In this document: one piece after another, positions 44,042 through 61,997 of the stretch
How the letters are laid out: every line of letters starts with the position of its first letter
Position numbering within the stretch: position 1 is the first letter of the stretch
Source: a virus
Lineage: Duplodnaviria; Caudoviricetes
Reading direction: 5' to 3' (one strand)
Virus record (IMG/VR): IMGVR_UViG_3300020050_009836
Coordinates: 19,861-83,860 of that record
DNA: 64,000 bases
Notes under the pieces: generated by a model
Told to the model about the DNA's origin: nothing
Database searches by the model: none
What the model saw: only the letters and a program-made list of their open reading frames with translations
Position numbers and translations under genes: made by a program

Positions 44042-44058
44042 ATTGGTTCCCTTTACGA

Positions 44059-45109: not shown

Positions 45110-45123
45110 TGTCCTATCCTTTC

Positions 45124-45755: not shown

Positions 45756-45937
45756 TTTTGGTTCCCTCCGTAGCATTTCGCTACATCAATATAATAACAT
45801 GTCTGGTATACAAAGTCAATATATTTCCAAGTAAATGTCTGGACATTCTGGTGGCAGGATATTTTGCTTCCAGCCTCACCTGTGAGAAAACGAAAAAGAA
45901 AAAGCCGGGATTTCTCCCGGCTGCTAGCAGTTGCCTA

Positions 45938-46192
45938 CTAGATACTGCGATAGGCTGCGACAGCTCGCTGCATAGGCTCCAAGTACTCACAGCGGACCAT
46001 GAAAGCTTGCATTTTGAGTGATGCAATTTCGTTTGGCGTTTGTGCATCACGGATACCATCTATCATGATTTCCAGTGCATGCAGCGCATCGGACAAATCA
46101 GAGCTTGGCACAGCATGCATGCGAGCGATAACGGATGCAACGGAGTCGGAGGACGTGTCTACGGAGTCCCAACCGTGTGTAGTGTTTTCCAT
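45938..46192 (-). CDS. leaderless MENTT protein
   Basis: TTGACA-17-TAAGAT-6 nt-ATGGAAAACACTAC. Confidence 0.85.
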   Translation of the reverse strand: MENTTHGWDSVDTSSDSVASVIARMHAVPSSDLSDALHALEIMIDGIRDAQTPNEIASLKMQAFMVRCEYLEPMQRAVAAYRSI

Positions 46193-46366
46193 GTCTATAT
46201 CTTATGCCATAAATGGGAGAATGTCAACAACTATTTTGCATTTACGTGAAATAGTTTTGTTGCATAATCAAACAACTGGCAGCGGCAGGATAGACGGGTA
46301 GTCATGAGTCCTGCTAGTAGGCAAGAAAAGAGCCGGTATTTCTACCGGCTTGACTAGGATAGGTTT

Positions 46367-46597
46367 CTACTTGAAACCTATCCGTTTCCTCCACGTTGGG
46401 GCATTTCTCGGCTCTGAGCGGTACCGCAGCTCTGCATTGCAGTAGTGCATTTCGTCGGAGTAGTAACCGGTATTACTATTCCACGGTTGGAGCTCGATTA
46501 CTTGCTGGCAATCAGCGATTATGTAATTGAGCGAGTGATTCGACAGTGTAGCCGCGTACCGCTGGTACTCGGAATGTTGCATGTGTTTGGTTCCCAT
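46367..46597 (-). CDS. leaderless MGTK cassette protein
   Basis: TTGCAA-17-TAAATT-6 nt-ATGGGAACC. Confidence 0.8.
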   Translation of the reverse strand: MGTKHMQHSEYQRYAATLSNHSLNYIIADCQQVIELQPWNSNTGYYSDEMHYCNAELRYRSEPRNAPTWRKRIGFK

Positions 46598-46763
46598 GCA
46601 TCTAATTTACCATCACTTTGTATACGTTGCAAATGTATTTTGTTGTTAGAGAATAACTATTGAATATGCAACTATCTGTAGAAGAGTGGCAGGACTGCTG
46701 AGTAGGTGTACAGCCTGTCGCTAGGCAAAAGAAAACTCGGATTTCTCCGAGTTAGTTCACTAA

Positions 46764-47018
46764 TCAATAAGTTATGTAAACTGATGTGTGGTGAATGTTG
46801 TCCATCAAAACGCACTCATCCATTACCGTGATGCACCAGCGGTGATGTTCAAATGTCATAAAGTGAGTCCGCTCACCGGTCTTACGGTACCGATTAATAG
46901 CCGTGGTCGCTTTTGTTTCGTATACCTTTGCATATTCCGGCTTGCTACCCGGCAATTCGTCAATGTAAATTTCGTACGTTGGATGCTTGATGCTCACTAG
47001 TGTTGCGATTGTTTTCAT
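46764..47018 (-). CDS. cassette protein, GGAACC leader
   Basis: AGGGAACCAAT-ATG. Confidence 0.8.
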   Translation of the reverse strand: MKTIATLVSIKHPTYEIYIDELPGSKPEYAKVYETKATTAINRYRKTGERTHFMTFEHHRWCITVMDECVLMDNIHHTSVYITY

Positions 47019-47303
47019 ATTGGTTCCCTCACCTAAATATTACCATAGTTTGTATACGTGCACACTATTATTCACTCAATTTCAAAACTATTTTTCAGCG
47101 AGATTTAGGCAGGACAATCAGCCTACTGCCAAGCCTGTCGATGTGACCAGCAGTCACGTGTGACTCAGCGTCACGTTGGTGACTATCAGTCACGGTGACC
47201 AGCCATCACTATGTGAATATGCCCTATACAGGTGGTCTGTGTGGCACCCCCCCCCTCCCCCTGAGCTGGAAAAAGGAAAGCCGGGATTTCTCCCGGCTGG
47301 TGA

Positions 47304-47504
47304 CTACGCTTCGTTGCACGTTGCGCAGTCGTTGCAGATATCTTCATCTGCTATCCAATCATCCTCCCAAACCCAGTCACCGCACTGTGTGCACTGCATG
47401 GTGCTAGGCTCCGCACCGTAGCAATCATCATCCATATCACCCGTCATCATCTCAGCATCCAGCCACGGTGCGATATTCGATTCCAACATCCATTCTTCGT
47501 CCAT
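47304..47504 (-). CDS. acidic Zn-ribbon-like cassette protein
   Basis: CTQC...C..C..C; AGGGAACC leader. Confidence 0.8.
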   Translation of the reverse strand: MDEEWMLESNIAPWLDAEMMTGDMDDDCYGAEPSTMQCTQCGDWVWEDDWIADEDICNDCATCNEA

Positions 47505-47679
47505 TTGGTTCCCTCTTTCCTACACTATTAATATATCATTGCACGTAGACAATGTCAAGAAAATAGACAAAGTATTTTAGTTGCATAATCAACAAACAAC
47601 GGGAATGGCAGGAATGTCGATAGGTATAGCAGCCTGTGATAAAGCAAAAGATAGCCGGGATTTCTCCCGGCTTGAGTTA

Positions 47680-47961
47680 TTAGAAGGGTAAAACCTCCTC
47701 ATCCAACTGCATGAAGATGTCGGCTTCACAGATTTGTAGCACCGGCTCAGTGCACCATGGACGCTCAATAACCACGTCCACTCTAAAGTCAGAGTAATCT
47801 GCCGAGTGCTTTCCAATGACACTTTGAAGCATTTGCTTCGCTAGTACCATTTTGAAATTACGGGTCACTTCGTCCTCAATGTTGAAGCGAAGGGAAACGA
47901 GCGACTCAAGCCGTTCGTCACCACGACCGACGAAGTCGAAATGAAGTGTAGTGTTTTCCAT
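47680..47961 (-). CDS. leaderless MENTT protein
   Basis: TAAGAT-6 nt-ATG. Confidence 0.85.
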   Translation of the reverse strand: MENTTLHFDFVGRGDERLESLVSLRFNIEDEVTRNFKMVLAKQMLQSVIGKHSADYSDFRVDVVIERPWCTEPVLQICEADIFMQLDEEVLPF

Positions 47962-48099
47962 GTCTATATCTTATCACACTTTGTCAATACTGCAAGAACT
48001 ATTTTATGCAAGGGTGAGGCTTGGCAGGAGTAGCACCGAGCATGACAGCCTGTCATGAGACATAAAAAGAGCCGGTATTTCTACCGGCTGGTGGATGTC

Positions 48100-48429
48100 C
48101 TAGACTGCGAGTCCAAGACATCCGATAACGGCTCCCGTGGAGTCCCGTACGAGTCCGTGTGGACTCACAAGGTCGATTCTATGTGAAGCGGCTGCTTTCA
48201 CGAGTCCCGACACAATATACCGAGTCCCCTTGATTGGTTCAGGAAGTCCGGTGATATCACCGTATGCTACACCGAATACGGGGATTTTCCCGTTCACAAG
48301 TGCAGTCTGCACCTCTTGGGTTTCGACACGTGCCACACGCCCATTTGCTGGGAATGTGTGGATGATATTGCCATTTGGCGATACCACACGGATTGCGTGT
48401 GGAGTGAGATTGATAAAGCGAGTCTGCAT
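48100..48429 (-). CDS. conserved phage protein (NLTPH motif)
   Basis: INLTPH..G.VARV..GLP.P...IVS..V; GGAGGGGAACC leader. Confidence 0.8.
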   Translation of the reverse strand: MQTRFINLTPHAIRVVSPNGNIIHTFPANGRVARVETQEVQTALVNGKIPVFGVAYGDITGLPEPIKGTRYIVSGLVKAAASHRIDLVSPHGLVRDSTGAVIGCLGLAV

Positions 48430-48633
48430 GGTTCCCCTCCGAAGTGGATTAGGTTGTTTCCTATCCACACACTAATAATACCATACCTATTGACAATGTC
48501 AAGCGATATTGCAAACTATTTCGTATTTTGTTGTTTGATTATTCAAATAGATGTAAGGCTTGGCAGGACTAACACCTAGTATGGCAGCCTGTCATGAGGC
48601 ATAAAAAGAGCCGGGATTTCTCCCGGCTTTCGC

Positions 48634-48867
48634 CTATTCACCGTAGTGGAAGATACACAGACACTCAGCACATATGCTAACTTCTTCGGTTCGTACCACT
48701 TCACCGGTGTAATCGTGCTTGTGTAGTACACAGTCGTACACATCGTTCCCTAATCCATCGTTGCAACAATCGCAACCCAATCGGCGGAATGAGCGTTCTT
48801 CGCTGCCGGTCATCGTGACATTAGCACCGGACAATTCGAGCGAGTCTAGAAATTCTTCCCAAGTCAT
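48634..48867 (-). CDS. Cys-rich cassette protein (paralogue of 45528..45755)
   Basis: Colinear with and highly similar to its paralogue. Confidence 0.85.
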   Translation of the reverse strand: MTWEEFLDSLELSGANVTMTGSEERSFRRLGCDCCNDGLGNDVYDCVLHKHDYTGEVVRTEEVSICAECLCIFHYGE

Positions 48868-49009
48868 TTTCGTGGTTCCCTTTATAGCACTTGGCTACAC
48901 TAGAATAATACCATACTGGTAGACAAAGTCAAGAAGTATTTAGTTATTAGATAATAGTTGAATCCGCAACGACAGGAGTTGCTACCACTCAGTAGTCCTG
49001 CCATCCGGC

Positions 49010-49168
49010 TCAATCCTCCTTTCCTTTGTGCTTTGCTTTCCGGCTGTACTCACGTTTGTTGTCATACGTCATCGATTTCTGCCACGGGCGGTCACTAGCC
49101 GGTATCCGTGATTTCACGGCTGTACGGGCATTCTGGAGCTCTGTGGAGGTAAGTTTAATTGTTTTCAT
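49010..49168 (-). CDS. 52-aa basic peptide, ArfA-like C-terminus
   Basis: Manual translation ends YDNKREYSRKAKHKGKED; AAGGGAACC leader. Confidence 0.65.
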   Translation of the reverse strand: MKTIKLTSTELQNARTAVKSRIPASDRPWQKSMTYDNKREYSRKAKHKGKED

Positions 49169-49219
49169 TTGGTTCCCTTTCAAAGATAGAGCCGGTATCT
49201 CTACCGGCTCATTGAGTGA

Positions 49220-49444
49220 CTAATCTATGTTGATGTTTCCGTGCTTGACACAGAGTGCATCGTAGATTTCCTGACCGTTTTCAGTGAGTGATTCATACCC
49301 TCTGTGAAGTGGTGAGATGCGAAACTGCATCCGTTGCAACCTACCGAATACACGGTAGATAGGGCAATTGACACCACCGTGCCAATCACAAGCGAACGTG
49401 TAATACGCTTCGCAGATATCAAACCGGTTCCATTCTGTCATCAT
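49220..49444 (-). CDS. cassette protein
   Basis: RFDICEAYY..WHGG motif; AGGGAACC leader. Confidence 0.8.
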   Translation of the reverse strand: MMTEWNRFDICEAYYTFACDWHGGVNCPIYRVFGRLQRMQFRISPLHRGYESLTENGQEIYDALCVKHGNINID

Positions 49445-49625
49445 AACTTGGTTCCCTCTTTCCTACATCAACAATATACATTGACACGGTTACAATGTCA
49501 AGAAGTATTTAGTTATTAGGTAATAGTTGAATCCGCAACGACAGGACTTACTACTCAGTATCGAGCCTGTCATCAGGCAAAGGGAAAGCCGGGATTTCTC
49601 CCGGCTTTCATTCTAGGGAACCAAC

Positions 49626-49790
49626 CTAGAAAATCCTAGGGATTAAGGTTCCAACGTAGATTAGTAGCACAGCGACTCCGAGATACGCTCTGTCCTTGCG
49701 ATGCATCGCTGCAAACAACAAAGCCAACAAACCGATTCCAGATATCCCGGTGAACGATACTAACCTTGACAAATCTTCTATGATTATCAT
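49626..49790 (-). CDS. 54-aa membrane peptide
   Basis: Manual translation, 2 hydrophobic segments, own promoter. Confidence 0.7.
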   Translation of the reverse strand: MIIIEDLSRLVSFTGISGIGLLALLFAAMHRKDRAYLGVAVLLIYVGTLIPRIF

Positions 49791-49919
49791 TTTTCCCCTA
49801 TCCCTTCCTACACTATAATAATACCACGTATATTGACAAAGTCAAGGGAATATACAAACTATTTTCAGCCTATCTATCCTGTCATCCAGACAAAAAAAGA
49901 GAGCCTTTCGGCTCTCCTC

Positions 49920-50129
49920 CTACTTTGTTGGCTTCACCTCCACAGCGGTAAATTTTTGCTCTAAGACATCCATTAGTTGACCAACAGCGTTATCAAATTC
50001 AGCGAACGCCGTGCGAAGTGCAGAATCCTTTGGCTCTAACTTACGGTAGATTTGCCATGCCGTCTCACACGCCTCATTGACGTGAGTGAAAAGCCGTTGC
50101 TCGTTTGTTGTTGGTGTAGTGTTTTCCAT
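49920..50129 (-). CDS. leaderless MENTT protein
   Basis: TAAGAT-6 nt-ATG. Confidence 0.85.
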   Translation of the reverse strand: MENTTPTTNEQRLFTHVNEACETAWQIYRKLEPKDSALRTAFAEFDNAVGQLMDVLEQKFTAVEVKPTK

Positions 50130-50258
50130 GCCTATATCTTATCAGACTTTGTCAATAATGCAAGAGAATATACGAACTATTTTCAGAATGCATAAGCAGC
50201 AGGAGTCGCTACCTACTAGTAGTCCTGCTAGTAGGCATAAAAAAAGAGCCTTTCGGCT

Positions 50259-50486
50259 CTACTCTGCACTTGCCTCCTCCTCTTTCAACTTTGTGAGCGT
50301 GTCATTAAACAGCTCACGGTCTATCACGTTCATCAAAGCGCCAAGTGCACTTTCATACGCCGTGTAGCATAGTTGCACCGTATCGGACTTATCCTTGGCT
50401 TTCATGTATGCCATAAAAGGTGCGTGGCTGCTTTCACACAACGCTTTGTACAACGCTCCCAATTCCGCTCTTTGTTGTTCTGTCAT
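50259..50486 (-). CDS. cassette protein, GGAACC leader
   Basis: Complete cassette. Confidence 0.8.
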   Translation of the reverse strand: MTEQQRAELGALYKALCESSHAPFMAYMKAKDKSDTVQLCYTAYESALGALMNVIDRELFNDTLTKLKEEEASAE

Positions 50487-50663
50487 TTCGGTTCCCTATC
50501 CCTTTCCTACACTAATAATATACCATGCCACGTATACAATGTCAAGTAAATAGATGAACTATTTTAGTTGCATAATCAACTATCTTCACCGGGACGGCAG
50601 GATGGGATACCTATAGTGGAGCCTGTCGTAAGGCATAAAAAAAGGAGCCTTTCGGCTCCTCCT

Positions 50664-50870
50664 CTACATCGCTCTTACTTTATCTACCCACTCTGCTACC
50701 TGAGCGAATGAAAGGTGCCCGTGCACATCATTTAGGATTTCTCCATTGTGCATCACAGCGATTTCGAAAAGTCCGGTTTCCGCACCGTACGATACTCCCG
50801 GTTTGCAGATGATGGATATCGTGTATCCATTTGGGAAAGTGATTTTGTTGTCGTAGTAAGTTTGTGTCAT
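50664..50870 (-). CDS. cassette protein, long GTAGG..AGGGAACC leader
   Basis: Complete cassette. Confidence 0.8.
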   Translation of the reverse strand: MTQTYYDNKITFPNGYTISIICKPGVSYGAETGLFEIAVMHNGEILNDVHGHLSFAQVAEWVDKVRAM

Positions 50871-51046
50871 TTCGGTTCCCTTTATAGGCTAGGCTTGCTT
50901 CCTTCCTACACCTATATATTACCATACTAGTAGACAAAGTCAAGTAAATATACAAAGTATTTTTGTTGTTTATGCAACAAAGTACAGATGATGGCAGGAG
51001 CTACACCACGCATGGCAGCCTGTCACTAGGCAAAGAAAAAGGGAGC

Positions 51047-51181
51047 CTAAGCTCCCTTGGTCCTTATCGCCGCATCGAGTATCCGGCACACTTCCTTGTA
51101 CCGAGCCGTACTGGTCTTACAGTAGCATTCAAGGGATAGTTTTTCCCATGTAAGTGTTTTTATGATTTCGTCGATTTCCAT
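51047..51181 (-). CDS. 44-aa protein, second gene of a cassette
   Basis: SD AAGGGGG; follows a hairpin lacking a U-tract. Confidence 0.55.
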   Translation of the reverse strand: MEIDEIIKTLTWEKLSLECYCKTSTARYKEVCRILDAAIRTKGA

Positions 51182-51229
51182 CTGTTTCCCCCTTGTGAAG
51201 TGTAGCCGGGATTTCTCCCGGCTCACACC

Positions 51230-51490
51230 TTAGAAGCGACTGTAGTCTACTTTGAGGTTGCATGCGTCTTTGAACCTACCTTCAAAGTACTCGCCACGAC
51301 TGACGGTATTAGGGTCATTACTACTGAGCATTGCCATTATTGACATCTCAGCGATTGCCATAATGCTACCGAGTTTGTAACCGATGTGAACCGGCTCGCT
51401 TTCGACGGCTACGGCTACGGCTACGGTGGTGCTATCACTAGCGGTGTCTACGACGTCCCAGCCTACTGGGTTAGCGGTAGTGTTTTCCAT
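51230..51490 (-). CDS. leaderless MENTT protein
   Basis: TTGACT-16-TAATAT-6 nt-ATG; shares GWD.VDT.SDS with 45938..46192. Confidence 0.85.
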   Translation of the reverse strand: MENTTANPVGWDVVDTASDSTTVAVAVAVESEPVHIGYKLGSIMAIAEMSIMAMLSSNDPNTVSRGEYFEGRFKDACNLKVDYSRF

Positions 51491-51675
51491 ACACTAATAT
51501 TACCATACTAGTAGACAAAGTCAAGAAAATAGATGAACTATTTTTACTTGCATATGCAACGACCAACCTTAGCAGGAAAGTGAACCTAGGTACAGTCCTG
51601 CCACTGGGATGTGACTATCCGTCACCATGATGACTATCCGTCACGTATGTAGAACACAAAAAAAGCCTAGGCGTT

Positions 51676-51984
51676 CTACCTAGGCTTGCTCATTGCAGGT
51701 CGTCTGGGTTGCACCCCCCCTCTACGAGAGAGAGAGGTATTCCCGTGAGTGATTTGTCCGGTCTCTACCATTTCGTGAACATACTTTGCGATGTCACGTG
51801 CATCCCACTTGTAGAACCCAAAGTCGATATCGGATGTCACGCCTTCGGTATCAGCGTAGTAAATTTCCATAGTCTCATCCGCATCCATCACGAGAACGGA
51901 TGCATTATCACGCTCTGCGGACATATTGACGTAGTATTCGGTATAACCGAGACCGTCACGATTTGGAACCTTCACTGTTGGCAT
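51676..51984 (-). CDS. cassette protein
   Basis: The promoter lies inside the longer track ORF, so the start is revised to MPTVK. Confidence 0.7.
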   Translation of the reverse strand: MPTVKVPNRDGLGYTEYYVNMSAERDNASVLVMDADETMEIYYADTEGVTSDIDFGFYKWDARDIAKYVHEMVETGQITHGNTSLSRRGGVQPRRPAMSKPR

Positions 51985-52050
51985 TTCTTTGTACCCTTCC
52001 TTCACATATATATTACCATACTTTGTCAATGTGTCAAGGAAATATGTAAA

Positions 52051-52320
52051 CTATTTTTCAGGCGTCCGGTAGGCAGGGTCTATCATAGGCAGCCACTCCT
52101 GTTCAAGCCACTTCATGAGTTGCTTGTAATCCACTCCGGTATACACAGCTCTACCATCGGTGAACAAAGTGACCCTACGACGGTTCCTGTAAGGGTAGAG
52201 GCTAACTCCTACCGTCATTCCTAGGCTATACGCTAGGTTTACGAGCTTGGTGAACAAAGTCCCGTCATGCATGAAAAAGCCTCTAGATTCGGCATCTAGA
52301 GGCTTGTGGAGGCTATTCAA
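52051..52320 (-). CDS. cassette protein (second gene)
   Basis: Coupled to 52317..52700. Confidence 0.55.
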   Translation of the reverse strand: MNSLHKPLDAESRGFFMHDGTLFTKLVNLAYSLGMTVGVSLYPYRNRRRVTLFTDGRAVYTGVDYKQLMKWLEQEWLPMIDPAYRTPEK

Positions 52321-52700
52321 TACGATGGCCGGAAGATGCCAGCCGTTGCATTGGCGGTACCACGTGCATCGTGTTCGGCGTCAAGGTTTACCCTCCACTG
52401 TGCATCTTCGTATTCGCCTAAGATAGCACGGGACATTTTTGTCTGTCTGCCGATTCTGCCAGCAAACTCAAATTTGTCAAAGTAATTCGAGTCAATGAGT
52501 GAATCTACCGCTTCACCATCCACATAGATGGTAGGCACACACTCTGCATTCAATTCTGCATGAATGATGAAATAGTCATTTCGCTCATTGGAGTCATACT
52601 CAAATCCCTCTGGCTTTGGATACACGTTAAGGTATGCAAATACATAACCTTCAGTGAGTCCATCGATGATTACTTCCCGGCTCAAATAATAAAACTTCAT
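52317..52700 (-). CDS. cassette protein, GGAAGGGAACC leader
   Basis: Complete 5' module. Confidence 0.8.
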   Translation of the reverse strand: MKFYYLSREVIIDGLTEGYVFAYLNVYPKPEGFEYDSNERNDYFIIHAELNAECVPTIYVDGEAVDSLIDSNYFDKFEFAGRIGRQTKMSRAILGEYEDAQWRVNLDAEHDARGTANATAGIFRPSY

Positions 52701-52898
52701 ATCGGTTCCCTTCCTACATCAATAATATACACCATGCCGTTTACAATGTCAAGAAAATAGACAAACTATTTTTCAGTTGATTATGCAACTACAACGGAAG
52801 TGGCAGGAGTGACTCACAGTCACTAAGCCTGTCACAAGGCACAAAAAAGTGGATGGAAGCGATTCGCCGTGCTTCCATCCACTTATCGGGATAACGCT

Positions 52899-53129
52899 CT
52901 ATTCGAACGTTACGAAACCGACTACCAGCATGCCACTAGGCTTGATTACCAGCATGTCGCCGGTATTTTCCACGCGGCATCGGTGATTCGTCAAATCCAG
53001 CTCGGCTTTGACACGTCGCATGATTTGCGACTGAGTGGCATCGGATGCCATTTCAAACTCACCACGCTTCACCCAACTGTAGTTGGCTTGACCACCAAAC
53101 GTGTCCGTCAACTCAAATCGTACTGTCAT
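52899..53129 (-). CDS. cassette protein (TDTFGG.ANYSW motif)
   Basis: Long leader; terminator near 52846. Confidence 0.8.
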   Translation of the reverse strand: MTVRFELTDTFGGQANYSWVKRGEFEMASDATQSQIMRRVKAELDLTNHRCRVENTGDMLVIKPSGMLVVGFVTFE

Positions 53130-53324
53130 TTTGGTTCCCCTTGTAGATTAGGCTGATTCCTATCTACATCTACAATATACACCACCTAGTAGACAAAGTC
53201 AAGAAGTATTTAGTTATTAGGTAATATTTGAATATGCAACTACCTTTGACTTGATGGCAGGACTACCACTCAGTATGGCAGCCTGTAAGCCGGACAAAAA
53301 AAAGGAGCCTTTCGGCTCCTCCTC

Positions 53325-53582
53325 CTACCCTTCGTCTTCGTCTTCGATTTCGTTCGCTTCGTTTATCGCGGCGGCGATTTCTTCGAAGTCTACAGCACTG
53401 ATGTAGGTTTCAATGATGTCATTGTAGAGTGAACCCGCCTCCACTCCAGCCGGTGCCAAGTCACGCACCATATTTTCCACTTCATCTGCCGATACCTTGG
53501 AGTCTTCACCGATGAATACATCCATGATGTGGAGTGAACAGTTCCACGTTTCGTAGTTCGTCCAACCGTTGTAGTTGCTCAT
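53325..53582 (-). CDS. YNGWxNxxTW-motif phage protein (paralogue of 55817..56083)
   Basis: YNGWTNYETW. Confidence 0.85.
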   Translation of the reverse strand: MSNYNGWTNYETWNCSLHIMDVFIGEDSKVSADEVENMVRDLAPAGVEAGSLYNDIIETYISAVDFEEIAAAINEANEIEDEDEG

Positions 53583-53846
53583 TTTGGTTCCCTTAGTAGA
53601 TTAGGCTGTTTCCTACCTACACTATAATATTACAGCCTACGTAGACAAAGTGCAAGGTTTATTTTTAGCATTTACTTATTAGTTGTTTGTATTTGATTTA
53701 GCAACTAAATTTTGTTCACAGGATTGGCTAGAGGTCACAGCTCCTGTTACACTGAGTAGCCGGATGATACTCCAGTTGTCCGAGCATCATAACAACTACC
53801 GTTCCATGGAGAAAAGGAGCATCCTAGGATGCTCCTTTTTAGTTGT

Positions 53847-54116
53847 CTACTTGACTTCGTCGAAGGTTGAACGGATTACGCCGCCGTGGTTGTAGAGAAA
53901 CTTGCAGATGATGTGGAGGTTCGTAGCACTCCATCTATCCGCACGATTCATGGCATCCATTAGGTCATTTCTTAGCACTGCATCCAAGAAGCCACCAAGC
54001 ATCATCGTGGTGCGATATTGCACAAAGCCTTCGAAGGCTTGGATGTAAGATGCGATGCAAGCGTATTCATTACGAGTTTCTTCGCTGATGTTCAGCGGGT
54101 TGTTAGTGTTTTCCAT
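53847..54116 (-). CDS. leaderless MENTN protein
   Basis: TGG-TACTAT-5 nt-ATGGAAAACACT; start revised from the track. Confidence 0.8.
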   Translation of the reverse strand: MENTNNPLNISEETRNEYACIASYIQAFEGFVQYRTTMMLGGFLDAVLRNDLMDAMNRADRWSATNLHIICKFLYNHGGVIRSTFDEVK

Positions 54117-54342
54117 ACCTAATAGTACCATAGTTGACAAAGTATGCCAGCATTCTGGAACATTTATTTTCAAGCAGAAGTTGACAGGCTCGGAGCCTAC
54201 TCATAAGTCCTGCCAATGTGACTTCTGGTCACCATGATGGCTGTCCGTCACATCCATCAACAACAAAAAAGCCTAGGATTCCACCTAGGCTTTGCACAAT
54301 GCAAGGCGTGTGTCTTCGCCCCCCCTCCCCCCAACGGGGAGC

Positions 54343-54606
54343 CTACAGTTCAAGTACCGTGTAGGAATACTCCTCATTATTGTCAAGTCGCACGGTTAGC
54401 GACACATCGCCGTAGAGTGACCCTTCAAACATCGGGTCGTATGTCATGCCATACCGTGAGAGGTATTCGTGCACACATGCCTCAAGTTCCTCATTTGTGT
54501 TAGCGTCTACGGAACCGACAACCTTAAGTGGTTGACCGTATCCGATTTCGCCGGGAGTGCCTTCGAAGATTTCGATTACTAAGAATCGTGCTGTAGTGTT
54601 TTCCAT
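54343..54606 (-). CDS. leaderless MENTT protein
   Basis: TTGCAA-16-TAATAT-6 nt-ATG. Confidence 0.85.
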   Translation of the reverse strand: MENTTARFLVIEIFEGTPGEIGYGQPLKVVGSVDANTNEELEACVHEYLSRYGMTYDPMFEGSLYGDVSLTVRLDNNEEYSYTVLEL

Positions 54607-54744
54607 GACTATATATTACCATAGATTGTCAACATTGCAAGAACTATTTTAGTTAATTATTCACTGTACGGCGATAACAGGTTATTCAGTGAATAAGGCA
54701 GCCTGTAAGGAGGTAAAGAAAAAGGAGCCTTTCGGCTCCTCCTC

Positions 54745-55011
54745 CTATCCAATCACTTCGATAACTTGGTCCGAGTAGCACCAACGGAGTCCGCTAGTGT
54801 GTGGTCCATCAACGACCTTTATAGTGAACACAGCGAGCTGCTCAGCTAGATTCACCCTATTGACCTTCAAACCATCCTTGGCTCGCTGTTGGCCAGTGGC
54901 TTCGATTTCGATTACCACGGCACGGCGTTCCGGTTCCATACCGAAGCAACCACGCCACATGATGATGTCGCCGACTGTAATCGTTCGGCTCTGGGTAGTA
55001 GTGTTTTCCAT
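54745..55011 (-). CDS. leaderless MENTT protein
   Basis: TTGACA-17-TAATAT-6 nt-ATG. Confidence 0.85.
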   Translation of the reverse strand: MENTTTQSRTITVGDIIMWRGCFGMEPERRAVVIEIEATGQQRAKDGLKVNRVNLAEQLAVFTIKVVDGPHTSGLRWCYSDQVIEVIG

Positions 55012-55340
55012 GCCTATATATTAGCCCATAACAGACACATTGTCAATAGGCTTTAGTTGTTTTTGTAGATATATTTTCAGTCGGTTCAGGGACAGCTGTG
55101 GCAGCCTGTAGTAGTTCAGATAGAGAAAAAGGAGGTAGATTTCTCTACCTCCTCCTCCAGTCGGGAACCAACCGACAATCGTTCGCCGAGCTGCGATGCT
55201 CTAGGCTTATAAAGGTTATATCGTGTAGGCTCACATTTGCCAAATCTAGAGGCTAAAAGAGTGGATGCTAACTATGAGCGGGTTAGCATCCACTATCATC
55301 CCTATGGTAAACACCACGAAAACCATAGGGACATCAGATA

Positions 55341-55616
55341 CTAGCGTTTGGCTAGTAAGTCAGCGTATCCGACAATCATCGTGTCAAGATACGGGTCGTT
55401 GCAGACTTCATCCACGATGATATCGTTGGTGTTTTCTTGCACAGCGACTTCAAACCAGTGGCGAAGTGCAGAGATATGCACAGCGTTGAGGTCTTCGACG
55501 GCGGTATTCACCAAGTCGATACCCAACTCATTTTTGATGCACTCAAGGTGCGACTCCGTCAATGTCCCGTGCATCTGGAAGTTGATGCTAACGCTTCCCG
55601 TGATTGTGAACTCCAT
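55341..55616 (-). CDS. cassette protein with hybrid leader AGGGAACC-GAAAACACT-ATG
   Basis: Both initiation motifs occur in the 5' UTR. Confidence 0.8.
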   Translation of the reverse strand: MEFTITGSVSINFQMHGTLTESHLECIKNELGIDLVNTAVEDLNAVHISALRHWFEVAVQENTNDIIVDEVCNDPYLDTMIVGYADLLAKR

Positions 55617-55816
55617 AGTGTTTTCGGTTCCCTCTGTAGGCTAGGCTTCTTCCTTCCTACATCACTAATATATCCCATACTGTAGACAATGTCAAGAAAA
55701 TAGATGAAGTATTTTTAGTTGCATAGTCAACAAACAACATAGGCGGCAGGATGTGACTAGTGGTCACACAGCCTGTAGGTAGGCAAAAAAAGGAGGAGCC
55801 TCTCGGCTCCTCCTCA

Positions 55817-56083
55817 CTACTCCGCTTCCTCCTCTTCGCTCTTCTCCCGGTCGTCGTTGATGTGCTTGACGATTTCCCGCCAATCCACTTGCTCTAGGTG
55901 GTCGTTTATGAGCCACTGAGCGTAATCATTACCGGCGGTGCCTATCCACTCGGCTACGAGCTCTTCGGCGGTGTCCGGCTCCATATCGGCTCCGGCTTCA
56001 TTGGCGATGTCTAGGAGGCTCTCGCCGAAGTTCAGCGATACATGCCATGTGTCCCAGTTCTTCCATCCGTTGTATCCACTCAT
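55817..56083 (-). CDS. YNGWxNxxTW-motif phage protein
   Basis: YNGWKNWDTW; start revised to MSGY. Confidence 0.85.
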   Translation of the reverse strand: MSGYNGWKNWDTWHVSLNFGESLLDIANEAGADMEPDTAEELVAEWIGTAGNDYAQWLINDHLEQVDWREIVKHINDDREKSEEEEAE

Positions 56084-56286
56084 TGTCGGTTCCCTTAGTA
56101 GGCTAGGCTTGTTCCTTCCTACACTATTAATATACAGCATACGTTGACAATGTGCAAATGAATTACCAAAAATAAATAAAGAATGTTAGTTGACTAATCA
56201 ACGAGCTACGACGGCTTTACAGGCTGCCATAGTAAGCTGATATCCTGCCATCAGGCAAAGAAAAAGGAGCCTCTCGGCTCCTCCTC

Positions 56287-56502
56287 CTATAACCCTTCGT
56301 TGAACTCTTTGACTACTTGGTTAAAGAGTCTGTCGTTTGCTTCCGTGTACTTCCGGAACTCTTCACGTAGCTTGCGGATTAGTTCCGCCTTGCTTACTGT
56401 GTCGTCGAATTCAACGTCATTTACGACGTATGAAACATTGAATGCGTGGTGCGTTGCGACTGTTAGACGCTTTTGCGTGTAGTCGGTAGTAGTGTTTTCC
56501 AT
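56287..56502 (-). CDS. leaderless MENTT protein
   Basis: TTGACA-17-TAATAT-6 nt-ATG. Confidence 0.85.
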   Translation of the reverse strand: MENTTTDYTQKRLTVATHHAFNVSYVVNDVEFDDTVSKAELIRKLREEFRKYTEANDRLFNQVVKEFNEGL

Positions 56503-56545
56503 GTCTATATATTACCCTTACTTTGTCAATGTGTCAAGTCTTTTT

Positions 56546-56800
56546 TCAACTATTTTGAAAATAAGTCTCATAAATGTCTTTGTGACCCGTTGCCTTTTCG
56601 TACAAGTCATCCGACCGCTTTGTGTAGCGGTTCCATGTGGCGACAAGAGCGTCAAGCATCTCATCCCGTTGGATTTCCTTGTTTACGCTTGCTCTGCACA
56701 GCAAGAGGTACATTTCGCCTACGGCATCCACAGCGATGTTTTCACGCTCTGCTGTGTACTCTGCCATTGTCAACGGTTGGGTTTGTGTAGTGTTTTCCAT
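56546..56800 (-). CDS. leaderless MENTT protein
   Basis: TTGACA-17-TAAGAT-6 nt-ATG. Confidence 0.85.
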   Translation of the reverse strand: MENTTQTQPLTMAEYTAERENIAVDAVGEMYLLLCRASVNKEIQRDEMLDALVATWNRYTKRSDDLYEKATGHKDIYETYFQNS

Positions 56801-56970
56801 GTCTATATCTTACAGCACTTTGTATACTATGTCAAGGAGTTTTTGAAGTATTTTCAAAGCACTTTTAGCAGGAGCTGCTACCAGCATACTAACCTGCCAC
56901 AAGGAAAGCAAAAGAGCCGGTAGGCTGTAGACCTACCGGCTTTCTCTACCGTCGCACCACCGACGGATTC

Positions 56971-57300
56971 CTATATTTCCGTCGCTTGTAAACACTTTCG
57001 TGATGTGTCATTCAACTGAGCATCACCGTGGAAATGAGCCGGTTGTGAGCGTTGGATAGTCCATTTTTCAATGATACTAGACTTGATGTGCTTGACTTGA
57101 AAGTCGATAGCACGACCGTAATTCTTCTCCGACCAGTTCTGCAACACATAGCCGTTTTCGGATGCGTATTGACTAGCGTAGGTATCCATACGGGTATGCC
57201 ATGCTACGTCTACATCCATGACATCGATGATAAGAGGAGTCGGGTACGTGCTCGTTGTGAGCATGAAGACAACTTTCGTTGTGAGTGTAGTGTTTTCCAT
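56971..57300 (-). CDS. leaderless MENTT protein
   Basis: TTGACA-17-TAACAT-6 nt-ATG. Confidence 0.85.
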   Translation of the reverse strand: MENTTLTTKVVFMLTTSTYPTPLIIDVMDVDVAWHTRMDTYASQYASENGYVLQNWSEKNYGRAIDFQVKHIKSSIIEKWTIQRSQPAHFHGDAQLNDTSRKCLQATEI

Positions 57301-57503
57301 GACTATATGTTAGCCCATAAAATAGACTTTGTCAATAACTATTTCAACTATTTTTTACTTGCATAATCAACAACAAAAGAGTGTTAGCAGGATAGGTGAC
57401 GTACAGTCAAGCCTGTAAAGGTGGGATGTGACCCAGAGTCACCATGATGTCTGTCAGTCACATACCAGAGCAAAGAAAAAGCCGGGATTTCTCCCGGCTT
57501 GGA

Positions 57504-57767
57504 TTACATCCCCTTCTCTACAGCGAGCTCTAGAGCCTTCTCTGTGAGGTACCAGCCGTACTTTTTCATGTCTGGTTCGTAGCCGACTAGTCCAGCCTCT
57601 TGTGCGCCAGAGATAACACCGCCGGTCTTCTCGGCACTCCAGCCGGTCACCTCAGACACCATACACGCACCAAACCAAGAATGGTTGTCACCTTGAAGTT
57701 GCTCTGCCGTTTCGTACGGGCTATCGGCGATTACCACTTCTATCAAACGAGTCTGCAATTCAGTCAT
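57504..57767 (-). CDS. cassette protein (possible winged helix)
   Basis: Long leader; terminator near 57480. Confidence 0.8.
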   Translation of the reverse strand: MTELQTRLIEVVIADSPYETAEQLQGDNHSWFGACMVSEVTGWSAEKTGGVISGAQEAGLVGYEPDMKKYGWYLTEKALELAVEKGM

Positions 57768-58052
57768 TTTGGTTCCCTCAGTAGGCTAGGTCAGTTCCTT
57801 CCTACACATACATAATAAGGCATAGATTAGACTTTGTCAACAACTATTTTGACTATTTTTTGCACGTTTACCAGTGATAGGTATGGTGACGTTTGGTCAC
57901 GGGTATCTTTACAGGTTCGACTCCGATGTGACTATCCGTCACCATAGTGACTATCCGTCACGTCCAAAGCAAAAAGAAAACCACCAGACGTAGCCTAGTG
58001 GTTGCACAATGCAGGTACGAGTCTTTGCACCCCCCCCGCCCCCCGGCAGAGC

Positions 58053-58301
58053 CTACACCTCTTCGGTGTAAGCATCTACCTCTACAAGGATTTTGTCGAT
58101 GATGTATGCGGCTTGGAGAACGTTGACGGTGTGGTCACAGTCCGCTTCAAGCTGTGCAATGCACGGTCCACCTTCACGGTGGTTAGCAGAGCATCCATTA
58201 TGCCCCTCACAGCAAGGGTGAAACATGTACTCTGGTGCTTGCTCGTTGACGTGGAAGCGGATGTACTCGGCGGTACCGTAGGTAACTTGTGTAGTGTTCA
58301 T
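58053..58301 (-). CDS. leaderless MNTT protein, Cys/His-rich
   Basis: TTGACA-17-TAATAT-6 nt-ATG. Confidence 0.8.
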   Translation of the reverse strand: MNTTQVTYGTAEYIRFHVNEQAPEYMFHPCCEGHNGCSANHREGGPCIAQLEADCDHTVNVLQAAYIIDKILVEVDAYTEEV

Positions 58302-58452
58302 GCCTATATATTACAGCACATTGTCAACGTTGTCAAGTAGTATTTTGTTGTTTGTTTATGATGGATACAACTAGTCACGGAGAAGTATCACAGGATAGAT
58401 GAGTAGGTGTATGACCTGTAATCACCCAAAAAGAAAAGGAGCCTTTCGGCTC

Positions 58453-58929
58453 CTACTCAAACGCTGGCGTCTTGTACAACTCGTTGATTCGCATCCACCA
58501 GTCAAGGACTCGGAACGTCCACCACTGAGGGTCACAGATAGCCTTGAGGTCATCTGGCGCCTTGGTGCTGAAGTTGATTTGAGCCTTACGGGCTAGTAGG
58601 CTGCCTTCTTCAAGTTGGCTGTCGTGCACCGTGTTGTAGAACGCATTACGAAGGCTATCCTCTGAGTATGCGACGTCTACTAGCATCTGGCTGGCTACCG
58701 CGTAGTCGGTGACTCCAGAGTCCTTCTCAAGGGCGTCTACAGCCGTGTTGAACAGCTTCTGACCTAACTTGTGCATGTCAAACAAGACATCCTTGTTGGT
58801 TGCACCATCGATAAAGATTCCCTTGAGTGCGAGATAACTCAGCATTTCAAAGGCGTCGCTTTCGAAGGCGGCGAGCTCTGGATTTTCCATAGCCCATCTG
58901 AGTCGTGCATGCTTTTCTTGATTCGTCAT
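58453..58929 (-). CDS. hypothetical protein
   Basis: SD GGAGG; second gene of a cassette. Confidence 0.8.
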   Translation of the reverse strand: MTNQEKHARLRWAMENPELAAFESDAFEMLSYLALKGIFIDGATNKDVLFDMHKLGQKLFNTAVDALEKDSGVTDYAVASQMLVDVAYSEDSLRNAFYNTVHDSQLEEGSLLARKAQINFSTKAPDDLKAICDPQWWTFRVLDWWMRINELYKTPAFE

Positions 58930-59202
58930 TTAATTTTCCTCCTCCGAGATATTGATTGTTGCTACGAGTTCATTGAACTCCCAAGCGGGTGAACCCTTGG
59001 ATGCAACGTGGATACCGTTGCGGATGATAACGAACTCGATATCGTCATCTGACTCAAACCAAGAGTAGAACGCATCCTTGAACTCAATGAGTGAGTAGAA
59101 GTCTGGATTGTGTTGACCGTCAGAGATTCGCATCTGCTGTCCGAGTGCCCGCACGTGATTGTTCATCAAGCGGAGCGTGTCTAAGAGTTGATATTTGTTC
59201 AT
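58930..59202 (-). CDS. cassette protein, GGGAAGGGAACC leader
   Basis: Complete 5' module. Confidence 0.8.
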   Translation of the reverse strand: MNKYQLLDTLRLMNNHVRALGQQMRISDGQHNPDFYSLIEFKDAFYSWFESDDDIEFVIIRNGIHVASKGSPAWEFNELVATINISEEEN

Positions 59203-59263
59203 TGTGGTTCCCTTCCCTACACTACTATCTTACACTATACATGACAGTATGTCAACAACTATT

Positions 59264-59494
59264 TCAACTATTTTCCAGCACACGGAACATGATTTCTCCG
59301 TCCCATCCGTCGTGGAAAACGATTGTCAAGTCGTCTTCGTCTGGCGCACAGACGATATTGTCAACGTCACCGCCGACGTAGTTCCTCATCCAGAACTGTG
59401 CAAAGCGTGTCAGGCGCTCAGCATCCATACCCTCAGTGCGAGAGGTCAGTACCTCTGTCTCAATGTCCGTTCCCGATACTTCAACTTTTGTCAT
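59264..59494 (-). CDS. cassette protein, AAGGGAACC leader
   Basis: Own promoter. Confidence 0.8.
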   Translation of the reverse strand: MTKVEVSGTDIETEVLTSRTEGMDAERLTRFAQFWMRNYVGGDVDNIVCAPDEDDLTIVFHDGWDGEIMFRVLENS

Positions 59495-59550
59495 CGTGGT
59501 TCCCTTTCCTACACAACTATGTTACACTATACATCACACTTTGTCAAGTA

Positions 59551-59817
59551 CTATTTTAGAATAAATGTGACCTCAATAAGTTGAGGCACAGTCATCTCCC
59601 AGAGCATCCGCCCCTTGACGGTGTAGGAGCCATCCTTGACGGTGATACCGTCGAACTGGTACCCCTTGACGCTTGACGTGTATAGCAAGCTGCGGACGCT
59701 GTATACATCCACGAAATGCTTGATGTCGATAAGACTTTGTGGCGTCGAAGTCTTGAAGTTGATGATTTCGTACCGTGAGCGGTCTCTTGGTAGGTTGTCC
59801 AGTATCTTTGCACTCAT
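59551..59817 (-). CDS. cassette protein with a ~145-nt structured leader
   Basis: Promoter TTGACA-17-TAACAT at 59969-59997. Confidence 0.75.
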   Translation of the reverse strand: MSAKILDNLPRDRSRYEIINFKTSTPQSLIDIKHFVDVYSVRSLLYTSSVKGYQFDGITVKDGSYTVKGRMLWEMTVPQLIEVTFILK

Positions 59818-60204
59818 GTCGTTTCCCCTTGGATAAACTTACGGGAGAAAGGTTGTGTCAGTCTCCCATAAGGTTCGCATAAGAGATTGTGGATTTAACC
59901 ACTCCAAGGTTGCTACCCTTATTTGAACAACACAACTTGTTCTAGCCGTTCTGGTCTCTTACACCACTATGTTACACCATACATGCTACTTTGTCAACAA
60001 GTATTTCAACTATTTTCAAAGATGCTAGCTGGACTCTTACAGGAGGTGACTGTCAGTCACGTGAACAGTTGTTTGTTGCATAATCAACAATGTGACTTTC
60101 CGTCACACATGAAAAAAGGAGCCTCACGGCTCCCTATAAATATATGCACAATGCAGGTGCGAAAACTCCGCACCCCCCCCAGCGTGGAGGGAGCCTTACC
60201 CAGA

Positions 60205-60456
60205 CTATGGCTTGTAGTCTGGGTAGATGATGAGGTTGTACATCCCGTTGCGGCTATCAGAGTAGTACTGAAGTACATACCCAGCATCATGAAAGAATGT
60301 CAAAGCCGTCTCACGGGAAATGTCAATGTGATGATGACTCTCAGTGACACCGTTCGGCACAGCGAGCCTAACCATCAGGTCGTTCTCAACGATGAAGCGG
60401 TAGGCCTTGTGCCCGTAGAAGTACTCAATCTTGTGTGGGGTTGTAGTGTTTTCCAT
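60205..60456 (-). CDS. leaderless MENTT protein
   Basis: TTGACA-17-TATAGT-6 nt-ATG; start revised. Confidence 0.85.
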   Translation of the reverse strand: MENTTTPHKIEYFYGHKAYRFIVENDLMVRLAVPNGVTESHHHIDISRETALTFFHDAGYVLQYYSDSRNGMYNLIIYPDYKP

Positions 60457-60664
60457 GTACTCACTATACATCCTTACTGGTACTTTGTCAAGTACATTTG
60501 TAAATATATTCAGTAAGCAGCTTGGGAGTTTTACAGGAGGTGACTCTGGGTCACGTTACCAGCAGTCATCAGCCTTCTGTTGTTTGTTTATTTAATTGAA
60601 CAAGTGTTTTATTATTTGCACAATGCAGGTGCGGAATCTTGGCACCCCCCAGAAATGGAGGAGT

Positions 60665-60744
60665 AAAAAGGTGGACGGAAAACACTACTAAACCGTCCAC
60701 CAACCTAGGCTGGGAATGGGAAGGGGAAGGGAACCATCCTAGGC
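60665..60744 (-). ncRNA. candidate ~80-nt antisense small RNA
   Basis: Own promoter, no ORF, two hairpins and a U5 terminator; carries GGUUCCCUUCC and UAGUAGUGUUUUCC. Confidence 0.8.
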
Positions 60745-60750
60745 ATACTA

Positions 60751-60779
60751 AGTATAGCCATTCCCCACTCCCATGTCAA
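60751..60779 (-). promoter_or_regulatory. promoter of the candidate sRNA
   Basis: TTGACA-17-TATACT. Confidence 0.85.
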
Positions 60780-60985
60780 GCGCGCCTAGGCTTCCGTAAG
60801 CTCTTGTTAGGAGCTGCATAATCGTGTGAGGCGTCGTAAGAGTCAAGGAAGGATTCTATGAACTCATTCCTAAGGCTGCCATACACGCACTTCTCACCCT
60901 TGAAAACAAGGATTACTGGGTTCAGTGAGTTCAGCTCACTCACGATGGTAAGTCCAAGTGAGTGAGCCTTCTTCTCGGTTGTCAT
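60776..60985 (-). CDS. hypothetical protein
   Basis: ATGA coupling. Confidence 0.65.
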   Translation of the reverse strand: MTTEKKAHSLGLTIVSELNSLNPVILVFKGEKCVYGSLRNEFIESFLDSYDASHDYAAPNKSLRKPRRA

Positions 60986-61293
60986 TCTTTGACCTTTGGC
61001 GGGAAGTCGATTTGGATGGATATATCACGATGAGTGAAGTTCATCTCGTCGTAATCATCATACTCCCACAACTGACGGTGCGTTGCGTTGTCGCTGGTGA
61101 GCAACTTCAAGAAGTCGTCACGCATGATGTTACGCATCTCGTTGATGACCCACTCGTGATACTCACCGTGAGTAGCCTTCACCATAAAGTGCACCTTCAG
61201 AATGTTGCAGTGCTCCGGCTTGTGGTAGTGCTCGAAGATTTTCACTGCGTCGTCCTTCTTCAGCTTCGTCAATTTGACTTTAGTGTTTCCCAT
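60982..61293 (-). CDS. leaderless MGNT protein
   Basis: TTGACA-17-TATAGT-6 nt-ATG; start revised. Confidence 0.8.
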   Translation of the reverse strand: MGNTKVKLTKLKKDDAVKIFEHYHKPEHCNILKVHFMVKATHGEYHEWVINEMRNIMRDDFLKLLTSDNATHRQLWEYDDYDEMNFTHRDISIQIDFPPKVKE

Positions 61294-61572
61294 GTGTTCA
61301 CTATACATGGTACTAGGTAGTTTGTCAAGAACTTTGTGTAAATACTTTTCAAGAGCTGGAGGTCTTACAGGATGTGACGCTCAGTCACCATGATGACGCT
61401 CAGTCACGTAGTGGAGTACAGATTACGTTTCAGGCTCCACAAACTGTATGCCCATTGCAGGTGCGAAAACTTGCACCCCCCCCGCTGGCTGTTTAAACGC
61501 TAAATAATGGCATTTACGAAAATGGACGGAATTATAAGCAATTCCGTCCAAATGTAACCGTTTTTGTTGTTT

Positions 61573-61911
61573 TTAGTCAACATCTAATGGTTTTTCGACC
61601 ATTTTGTCCTTTAATTGACCAAAAAGTAGTGTGTCTGGGTCTGCTTCAGCCTCTGATTTAGCATCCTTCAAACCTAGTAGGATTTTCAAGGCATCGTTCC
61701 AGCCAACACTTACGAATGTGTCCTCCTCAGTCCAGTGGAGGATTTGGTTGTCTTCAAAGCGGAAACTCTCCTCCCAGCCGTCAGCGACGATAAAGGTAAC
61801 GAGTGTGCCACTAACAGTGAACTCTTTTATCTGCCCCGCACAGGCTAACTGATGCACAAGGAGCAAACCCTTCTCCTTAATCATGCTGTCGATGTATTCT
61901 TCGTACGTCAC
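61573..61911 (-). CDS. hypothetical protein
   Basis: GTG start overlaps the TGA of the 29-aa MENT ORF; terminator at 61519-61550. Confidence 0.75.
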   Translation of the reverse strand: MTYEEYIDSMIKEKGLLLVHQLACAGQIKEFTVSGTLVTFIVADGWEESFRFEDNQILHWTEEDTFVSVGWNDALKILLGLKDAKSEAEADPDTLLFGQLKDKMVEKPLDVD

Positions 61912-61997
61912 TTTACAATGACCCCCTTCTGAACGAACTCAATGAGGAACCGTTGCGCCCACTCTTCTGCTGTAAGACCGTCTATAGTGTTTTCCAT
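61908..61997 (-). CDS. 29-aa leaderless MENT peptide
   Basis: TTGACA-17-TATAGT-6 nt-ATG; MENTIDGLTAEEWAQRFLIEFVQKGVIVK. Confidence 0.7.
   Translation of the reverse strand: MENTIDGLTAEEWAQRFLIEFVQKGVIVK

Follow-up and report, generated by a model that had tools for sequence, protein, structure and literature searches.

A predicted two-hairpin RNA of an uncultured freshwater phage, with loops complementary to both start motifs of its early-gene cassettes

In phage T4 the joint shut-down of many early messages is the task of two proteins, the translational repressor RegA and the endoribonuclease RegB, which recognize a short motif in early-mRNA initiation regions. The bacterial small RNAs (sRNAs) DapZ and MicL derive from 3' untranslated regions (UTRs), depend on Hfq and carry linear seeds upstream of the terminator, not in the terminator loop. 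Phages have antisense RNAs of their own, the CI RNA of P4 being a further analogue beside the c4 RNA of P1 and P7. To our knowledge, very little is known about the post-transcriptional control of leaderless mRNAs. In the account given by PMC8198154, which cites Citron and Schuster 1990, c4 of P1/P7 is an antisense RNA that controls phage genes in trans. In LhrC, the loops, including that of the terminator, have been established experimentally as seeds that block ribosome-binding sites (PMC4132741). Here we analyze a locus at positions 60665-60779, minus strand, of a stretch of 64,000 nucleotides (the window), which is the last 64 kb of an 83.9-kb IMG/VR record from an uncultured freshwater phage. 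Based on its conservation and pairing potential, we conclude that the unit is a real, selectively maintained non-coding RNA gene with its own promoter and terminator and that its RNA very probably controls about 35 small early genes together. On balance, we lean towards a trans-acting translational repressor with two loop seeds.

Portal, terminase and major head genes are found in the window, and between 41 and 64 kb there is an array of about 50 small minus-strand genes, each with a near-consensus sigma-70 promoter and a terminator. Two start architectures alternate along this cassette array. In the leaderless class (n = 13) the -10 element ends 5-6 nt before the ATG, whose A is the 7th base past the -10, and the message starts with AUGGAAAACACUAC. 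The leadered class (about 22 genes in the array) has a short leader, frequently with GUAGGAA at its start, and GGGAACC 1-9 nt ahead of the ATG. The GGGAACC motif is start-proximal in the early cassettes only (window 41962-59512, minus strand); late and structural genes lack it, and their Shine-Dalgarno (SD) sequences are weak or missing. The two classes of putative targets are located as follows.

46179..61997, minus: target class A, 13 leaderless starts with the AUGGAAAACACUAC 5' end
61997, 61293 (variant), 60456, 57300, 56800, 56502, 55011, 54606, 54116, 51490, 50129, 47961, 46192, minus: class A start positions
41962..59512, minus: target class B, about 22 leadered starts with GG(G/A)AACC 1-9 nt before the ATG; the leader form is also written GUAGGAAGGGAACC
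59504, 59212, 57777, 56094, 52710, 50496, 49456, 47513, minus: class B examples

A first-pass annotation of the window had described a promoter and two hairpins at this locus, and each of these elements was found where it had been placed on the minus strand (60779 to 60665), with no conserved open reading frame (ORF).

60751..60779, minus: sRNA promoter, sigma-70-type (-35 TTGACA at 60779-60774, 17-nt spacer, -10 TATACT at 60756-60751)
60745..60750, minus: variable discriminator, from the -10 to the predicted start G60744
60703..60744, minus: hairpin 1, with outer stem GCCUAGG (60744-60738)/CCUAGGU (60709-60703), inner stem UGG/CCA and a 20-nt CU-rich loop
60737-60716, minus: seed 1, AUGGUUCCCUUCCCCUUCCCAU, antisense to (A/G)AGGGAACC(A/G); loop 1 is written AUGGUUCCCUU... 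or AUGGUUCCCUUCC...
60665..60701, minus: intrinsic terminator, with a 9-bp stem GGUGGACGG (60701-60693)/CCGUCCACC (60678-60670), then U5
60692-60679, minus: terminator loop (loop 2), 14 nt, UUUAGUAGUGUUUU
within the terminator loop, minus: seed 2, UAGUAGUGUUUUCC, antisense to the 5' end AUGGAAAACACUAC(UA)

The promoter matches the consensus at 11 of 12 positions, a grade equal to that of the neighbouring cassette promoters, and the stop codon of an upstream 69-aa ORF falls inside its -35. By likeness to the leaderless cassettes we infer that the RNA starts at G60744. The predicted short non-coding transcript is thus enclosed by a promoter of its own and an intrinsic terminator, with a GC-rich stem and a U tract at the end of the unit. 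The conserved 14-nt loop of this terminator is unusual, and a simple scanner missed the terminator because its loop limit is 8 nt. The 81-nt RNA folds with -29.7 kcal/mol (z = -4.95), and none of 200 shuffles is as stable. Loop 1 holds UUCCC four times.

How does this unit compare with the systems described above? The UCCC-motif sRNAs compared in PMC4132741 are LhrC1-5 of Listeria monocytogenes, RNAIII, RsaE, SprD and FsrA. The phage RNA resembles LhrC in having two hairpins, one of them the terminator, CU-rich loops set against a G-rich ribosome-binding region and several seeds per RNA (PMC4132741). It has the UCCC loop of the LhrC/RsaE type, and the four UUCCC copies in loop 1 pair in silico with the AGGGAACC leaders. 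LhrC seeds, however, are redundant copies of one motif directed at the ordinary SD sequences of host genes, whereas the loops of the phage RNA differ from each other, and each matches one start architecture of the phage's own genes, in one case a leaderless 5'-terminal coding sequence. The target GGGAACC is not a canonical, GGAGG-like SD of host type and is confined to the cassette array. The two RNAs have no sequence similarity, and we claim a functional resemblance, not homology. Like c4 in the account of PMC8198154, the predicted RNA is a phage-encoded small RNA with short complementary segments on a folded molecule, directed at the phage's own mRNA. That account has c4 acting on a single operon (icd-ant) in temperate-phage immunity, where it keeps downstream genes from being expressed, and processed from the same transcript. 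Unlike c4 as described there, the present RNA has its own promoter and its target motifs lie in about 35 separate transcription units over 20 kb; no immunity operon was recognized near the locus. As in DapZ and MicL, the promoter lies at the end of an upstream coding sequence and the terminator is common to the upstream mRNA. The logic is that of T4 RegA and RegB, except that the recognizer would be an RNA here and is a protein there.

The first-pass annotation stated that no equivalent had been described. This was too strong, as LhrC-type RNAs, with a UCCC loop and terminator-loop seeds, and the P1 c4 RNA are analogues. Our literature search found no phage RNA described as aimed at leaderless starts. 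As far as the sequence can tell, what is new relative to the known systems is the presence of two different seeds, a leaderless 5'-terminal coding target, about 35 targeted units and one terminator-loop seed that recurs across phages. A search of the whole window with Rfam 15 at the gathering threshold gave a tRNA at 35440 as the sole match and none at the locus, where relaxing the limit to E values up to 10 yielded chance matches only, of 11-17 bits. The locus had no blastn match in the phage GenBank collection, an exact IMG/VR scan with the loop-1 sequence gave no further record, and the 330-aa AAA_25/helicase-like neighbour, used as an IMG/VR anchor, gave no pattern match.

The first-pass annotation had also proposed that the two hairpins are complementary to both start motifs. 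This complementarity is specific, as judged by a duplex scan, shuffled-loop controls and strand asymmetry. It spans 13 bp at the leader at 59212 and 12 bp at the leader at 52710; for the leaderless class it spans 14-16 bp at starts 55011 and 56502 and 11-12 bp at most others. The proposed two-class target set was also borne out, although its size was not: instead of about 38 targets there are 13 leaderless and 22 leadered ones, about 35. In the duplex scan, which took in all 25-nt segments on either strand of the complete genome, leaderless starts account for 12 of the 22 top-ranking segments for loop 2. Paired with the 13 starts, loop 2 has a median duplex energy of -14.6 kcal/mol (range -10.7 to -17.4), and 0 of 200 shuffled loops are as good; for loop 1 with the 22 leaders the median is -17.0 kcal/mol, and 1 of 200 shuffled loops is as good. 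The motifs themselves are strongly biased in strand and position. ATGGAAAACACTAC, allowing up to 2 mismatches, has 15 matches against 0.73 expected; 13 are minus-strand gene starts and two lie on the plus strand, one of these being the terminator loop read in antisense. GGAAGGGAACC, allowing up to 1 mismatch, has 8 matches against 0.55 expected, and its sole plus-strand copy is the antisense of hairpin 1. Genome-wide, the minus strand has ten copies of AAAACACTAC, each at the start of a gene, and the plus strand has a single one, in the sRNA terminator loop; GGGAACC occurs 25 times on the minus and four times on the plus strand, where three of the four copies lie in hairpin 1 of the sRNA and in two 3'-UTR hairpins described below. 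Complementarity of the seeds at translation initiation regions is therefore beyond chance.

Conservation in relatives separates the RNA from its surroundings. When metagenomes were scanned for both seeds in the correct spacing, nine homologous loci were among the 18 hits. A protein-only search with the 69-aa ORF gave five clusters of homologues (99, 94, 78, 72 and 70% identity), and the sRNA unit stands directly after this ORF in all five. In comparison with the variants that are more distant, identity is 98-100% for the RNA body, 65-79% for the 3' part of the 69-aa ORF, 47-71% for the promoter spacer (71% in L225/L286, 47% in L232) and 38-71% for the downstream spacer; the segment from the -10 to the RNA start is 50-67% identical in these variants and 50-100% over the relatives. 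The promoter is conserved: its hexamers are identical in four of five variants, and L232 has TTGAAT-18-TAGAAT around an unrelated spacer, still promoter-like. The flanks differ among lineages, with a 27-nt insertion upstream in L222, other downstream cassettes in L223 and L225 and an extra unit in L291, and the sRNA unit therefore behaves as a module. In L291 and L293 an extra insertion of about 100 nt with a terminator-like hairpin (L291:4825-4925) separates the sRNA terminator from the G-box and may represent a further small unit.

Within the RNA, both structure and loops are under purifying selection. The hairpin-1 stem of L291-L293 carries four substitutions that all keep pairing, two of them compensatory (G-C to A-U, U-A to G-C) and two wobble changes, and the terminator stem of L232 is longer by one C-G pair. 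The first ~16 nt of seed 1 (GGUUCCCUUCCCCUU) are invariant except in L291, which has a 1-nt insertion and two changed bases before GGUUCCC; the remaining loop-1 substitutions all fall in the 3' part of the loop. The terminator loop is fully invariant across the unit variants. Loops 1 and 2 are thus the best-conserved parts of the unit, and a conserved structure presents conserved, single-stranded seeds. Both target motifs are invariant wherever a relative has retained the RNA. Operons of L291 contain the MENTT start of the leaderless class in their interior as well, as TAATGGAAAACAC, which speaks for a role of the motif at the RNA level rather than within a promoter. A small protein was considered and rejected: the possible frames of 10-13 codons lack conservation, with loss of the ATG in the ITS variants and a 1-nt indel in L291. 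Indels shift the reading frames among the variants, so that no peptide is conserved.

The terminator loop extends well beyond these relatives. Exact scans of IMG/VR for the 14- or 16-nt loop retrieved it in strong hairpins that precede T-runs and have stems of at least 10 unrelated sequences, in contigs of 33-59% GC. In 13 distinct loop-2 hairpins the 9-bp stem is 100% paired and eight of nine pairs are changed on both sides, with a stem covariation score of 1.13 against 0.25 in shuffles. Since this set was chosen for having a stem, two controls matter. In the first, a protein-only search with a 101-aa ORF family (48-79% identity), the loop is identical in 11 of 11 loci that have that gene end, and these jumbo-phage-like loci have six different stems and divergent spacers. 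In the second, the loop sequence was matched 47 times in 185,579 prokaryote species genomes, one per species, and none of the 47 lies in a GC-rich hairpin. A covariance model found second loop copies in the same phages, differing only at the loop edges. The jumbo-phage-like contigs contain a leaderless gene with a AUGGAAAACACUACUA start 1.1-3.5 kb upstream of the hairpin, on the same strand, and the gene directly before the hairpin starts AAAACACU-AUG, with 10 nt complementary to the loop. Since the loop and a leaderless MENTT start occur together in those contigs, the pairing appears to be conserved well beyond the present phage.

The 101-aa family ends ...NLKFSHSDLPLG (...LPLG), has no Pfam match and is represented by L179:6969-7340 and also in L186, L190, L198, L200, L203, L133 and L043. 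Its members always stand directly after a tRNA gene, with a conserved box (ACAGAWUGAG) in the 3' UTR and the anti-MENTT terminator downstream of them. A GGAACC-type leader also occurs in an unrelated 35%-GC jumbo-phage contig (L043:1140-1172). In two 59%-GC contigs (L173:8560-8640 and L175:5550-5630) the AT-rich 14-nt loop is set on a 12-bp stem, GGAGGAGAGGGG/CCCCTCTCCTCC, after a structural-looking gene; ACCTTCTTTC lies 3' of both hairpins and of the L193 copy. The apparent hairpin of L193 is more likely an SD-plus-MENTTK start on the opposite strand and was excluded from the stem analysis.

The first-pass annotation regarded the RNA as a lone 'master' regulator. This does not hold, because two more 3'-UTR hairpins in the array expose the seed UUGGUUCCC.

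49612..49630, minus: accessory 3'-UTR hairpin UCUAGG[UUGGUUC]CCUAGA, directly before a terminator, with the anti-leader seed as in loop 1
55160..55176, minus: accessory 3'-UTR hairpin GUCGG[UUGGUUC]CCGAC, directly before a terminator, with the anti-leader seed on a different stem

Among complete relatives G001 is the closest, and it is collinear (about 75-80% identity) until its contig ends at window ~59863. It keeps the hairpin at 49630 (95% identity) as well as that at 55176, and the latter is found in L286 too. The sRNA is therefore one member of a distributed anti-leader system. A further terminator-like hairpin in L286, an 87.6-kb relative, is formed by the leader motif and its own antisense (GGGGAACC-AACC-GGTTCCCC, then a T-run; L286:17925-17960).

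The unit is also entered from the operon upstream of it.

60776..61328, minus: upstream operon reading into the sRNA, with promoter 61328, a leaderless 108-aa MGNTKV gene (to 60982) and the 69-aa ORF (60985-60776)

There is no terminator between the 69-aa ORF and the sRNA unit, which is therefore also the 3' UTR of the upstream two-gene mRNA.

What would such an RNA do during infection? We infer its transcription, its pairing in the cell and an effect that represses, as opposed to protecting or activating, from the features above. The host sigma-70 RNA polymerase would make the RNA of about 80 nt from its own promoter, and the same RNA could also form as the 3' end of the two-gene mRNA. Loop 1 would pair with (A/G)AGGGAACC(A/G), 3-7 nt before the AUG of the approximately 22 leadered mRNAs, and the terminator loop, through UAGUAGUGUUUUCC, with nucleotides +3 to +16 of the 13 leaderless mRNAs that start with AUGGAAAACACUAC. 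Pairing would block ribosome access, which for the leaderless class means binding of the 70S ribosome at the 5'-terminal AUG. As the RNA accumulates, the early-gene cassettes would undergo a delayed and coordinate turn-down, with a probable contribution to the regulator pool from the two 3'-UTR hairpins that bear the anti-leader seed. The terminator-loop seed is probably an older module, which in jumbo-phage-like contigs resides within the terminators of protein-coding genes, near a leaderless MENTT gene. The first-pass annotation had taken such silencing to explain why the 5' ends of the cassettes are conserved. The RNA may not be the cause of that conservation, for the motifs may equally be initiation signals that the RNA evolved to target.

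Several observations weigh against repression of both gene classes through the two loops. The contig of G001 stops about 800 nt short of the locus, so that this relative is silent on it either way. Seeds and targets are both invariant in the relatives recovered, and there is therefore no covariation between them. In silico, loop 1 has stronger partners than the leaders, namely the G-runs of inter-cassette GGGGGGGGTGC boxes, which makes the true partner of loop 1 less certain. Pairing along all 14 nt of a hairpin loop is not possible without strain. GGGAACC is a putative ribosome-binding signal. In the GC-rich contigs L173 and L175 no matching target was found in 7-11 kb of partial contig.

Could the pairing be real and its effect positive? 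The loops might shield the cassette 5' ends from 5'-end-dependent RNases or host defence nucleases, or might bridge 5' and 3' ends, in the manner of UTRs that pair inside a single mRNA. A protective or bridging role fits the layout of the jumbo-phage-like contigs, where the loop lies in the terminator of an operon or neighbourhood begun by a leaderless MENTT gene and where the AAAACACU-AUG start of the gene directly before the hairpin is itself complementary to the loop over 10 nt; the leader of the cassette that ends at 55176 is matched by the loop in this cassette's own 3' UTR. It fits the present phage poorly, because the start of the very operon that ends in the sRNA, a variant AUGGGAAACACUAA, is the weakest of the 13 matches (-10.7 kcal/mol). 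Moreover, the cassette ending at 49630 is without a GGGAACC leader, the unit keeps a promoter of its own that a purely cis element would not need, and initiation is expected to suffer when nucleotides +3 to +16 of a leaderless mRNA, or an AUG-adjacent motif, are paired. We consider protection or bridging unlikely, but not negligible. Alternatively, the RNA might be functional with its main partner elsewhere, the match to the phage motifs being secondary. It might be a host-directed anti-SD RNA, through the four UCCC repeats, or else a partner or sponge for the G-rich inter-cassette boxes or for an RNA-binding protein. The fourfold UUCCC of loop 1 is a classic anti-SD signature (PMC4132741), the best in-silico partners of this loop are G-runs at 47260, 45517, 54337, 58048, 63409 and 60187, and GC-rich phage contigs carry loop 2 with no visible target. 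However, loop 2 has no GGA or SD-like content, and coincidence cannot explain its match of 12-14 nt to what is the phage's most conserved 5' sequence, because 0 of 200 shuffles are as good and a single antisense copy exists in 84 kb. In addition, the part of loop 1 that does not vary coincides exactly with the GGUUCCC end common to the two 3'-UTR hairpins, and the hairpin has no copy in the 185,579 prokaryote species genomes. A principal partner outside the start motifs is, in our judgement, improbable.

A further alternative is that the locus amounts to no more than a 3' UTR and terminator belonging to the upstream operon, the hexamers and complementarities being by-products of cassette shuffling, that is, inverted 5'-end remnants in standard hairpin scaffolds. 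It would account for the missing terminator between the 69-aa ORF and the unit, for the reuse of phage scaffolds in the stems (AGCCTAGG...CCTAGGCT at 13693, 51666 and 54272; a TGGACGG...CCGTCCA terminator at 61550) and for the plus strand, which reads T-E-N-T-T-K and resembles a decayed MENTT start. The conservation pattern contradicts this reading: conservation is far higher in the loops than in the flanking ORF, the hexamers stay promoter-like even where the spacer has been replaced, and the identical loop sits in many unrelated stems of other phages. We give a mere remnant very little credence. As for a decayed MENTT gene on the plus strand, it was discarded, since the plus frame is broken by indels in L232 and L291 and the order of the motifs fits no cassette.

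What are the implications if the RNA is indeed a two-seed repressor? RNA pairing with the extreme 5' ends of leaderless mRNAs would be a new mode of regulation, and an RNA with two seeds for about 35 transcription units would represent a compact new form of early-gene shut-off, known so far from proteins such as T4 RegA and RegB. A terminator loop that recurs across unrelated phages on freely covarying stems is an uncatalogued RNA motif, and searches with it could lead to regulators, and to what they target, in phages from metagenomes. Start motifs this short and portable, together with a matching RNA, could serve as orthogonal translational switches, and the system is readily testable given its sigma-70 consensus promoters and short motifs. 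More tentatively, we speculate that uncultured phages may share a hitherto unrecognized RNA 'code', in which loops of terminator or sRNA hairpins, antisense to leaderless 5' ends and leader motifs, switch off sets of early genes by RNA alone. The present RNA would then be a two-seed version for about 35 genes, and the UUUAGUAGUGUUUU loop an ancient, horizontally shared module with the same action in jumbo phages; we see this broader scheme as possible, but short of probable.

The surroundings of the unit share several sequence elements with it. The inter-cassette box occurs seven times in the window (60613-60655, 60141-60183, 63363-63405, 61445-61487, 57999-58041, 54289-54331 and 45465-45507), directly 3' of certain terminators, that of the sRNA among them; on the minus strand it consists of a run of 6-9 G, a short GC hairpin and then TGCATTGTGCA. 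An operator role for three CCTAGG sites was dropped, as CCTAGG is a frequent building block of hairpin stems here: 25 copies exist in the 83.9-kb genome as a whole, 23 of them within the window, against 13 expected under a Markov model (about twofold). Hairpins of the form AGCCTAGG-N6/7-CCTAGGCT recur as terminator stems at window 13693-13713, 51666-51684 and 54272-54289. The terminator at window 61523-61550 (minus strand), TGGACGGAATT-GCTT-ATAATTCCGTCCA, has an outer stem in common with the sRNA terminator (GGTGGACGG...CCGTCCACC), which suggests that the anti-MENTT loop was grafted onto a local terminator scaffold.

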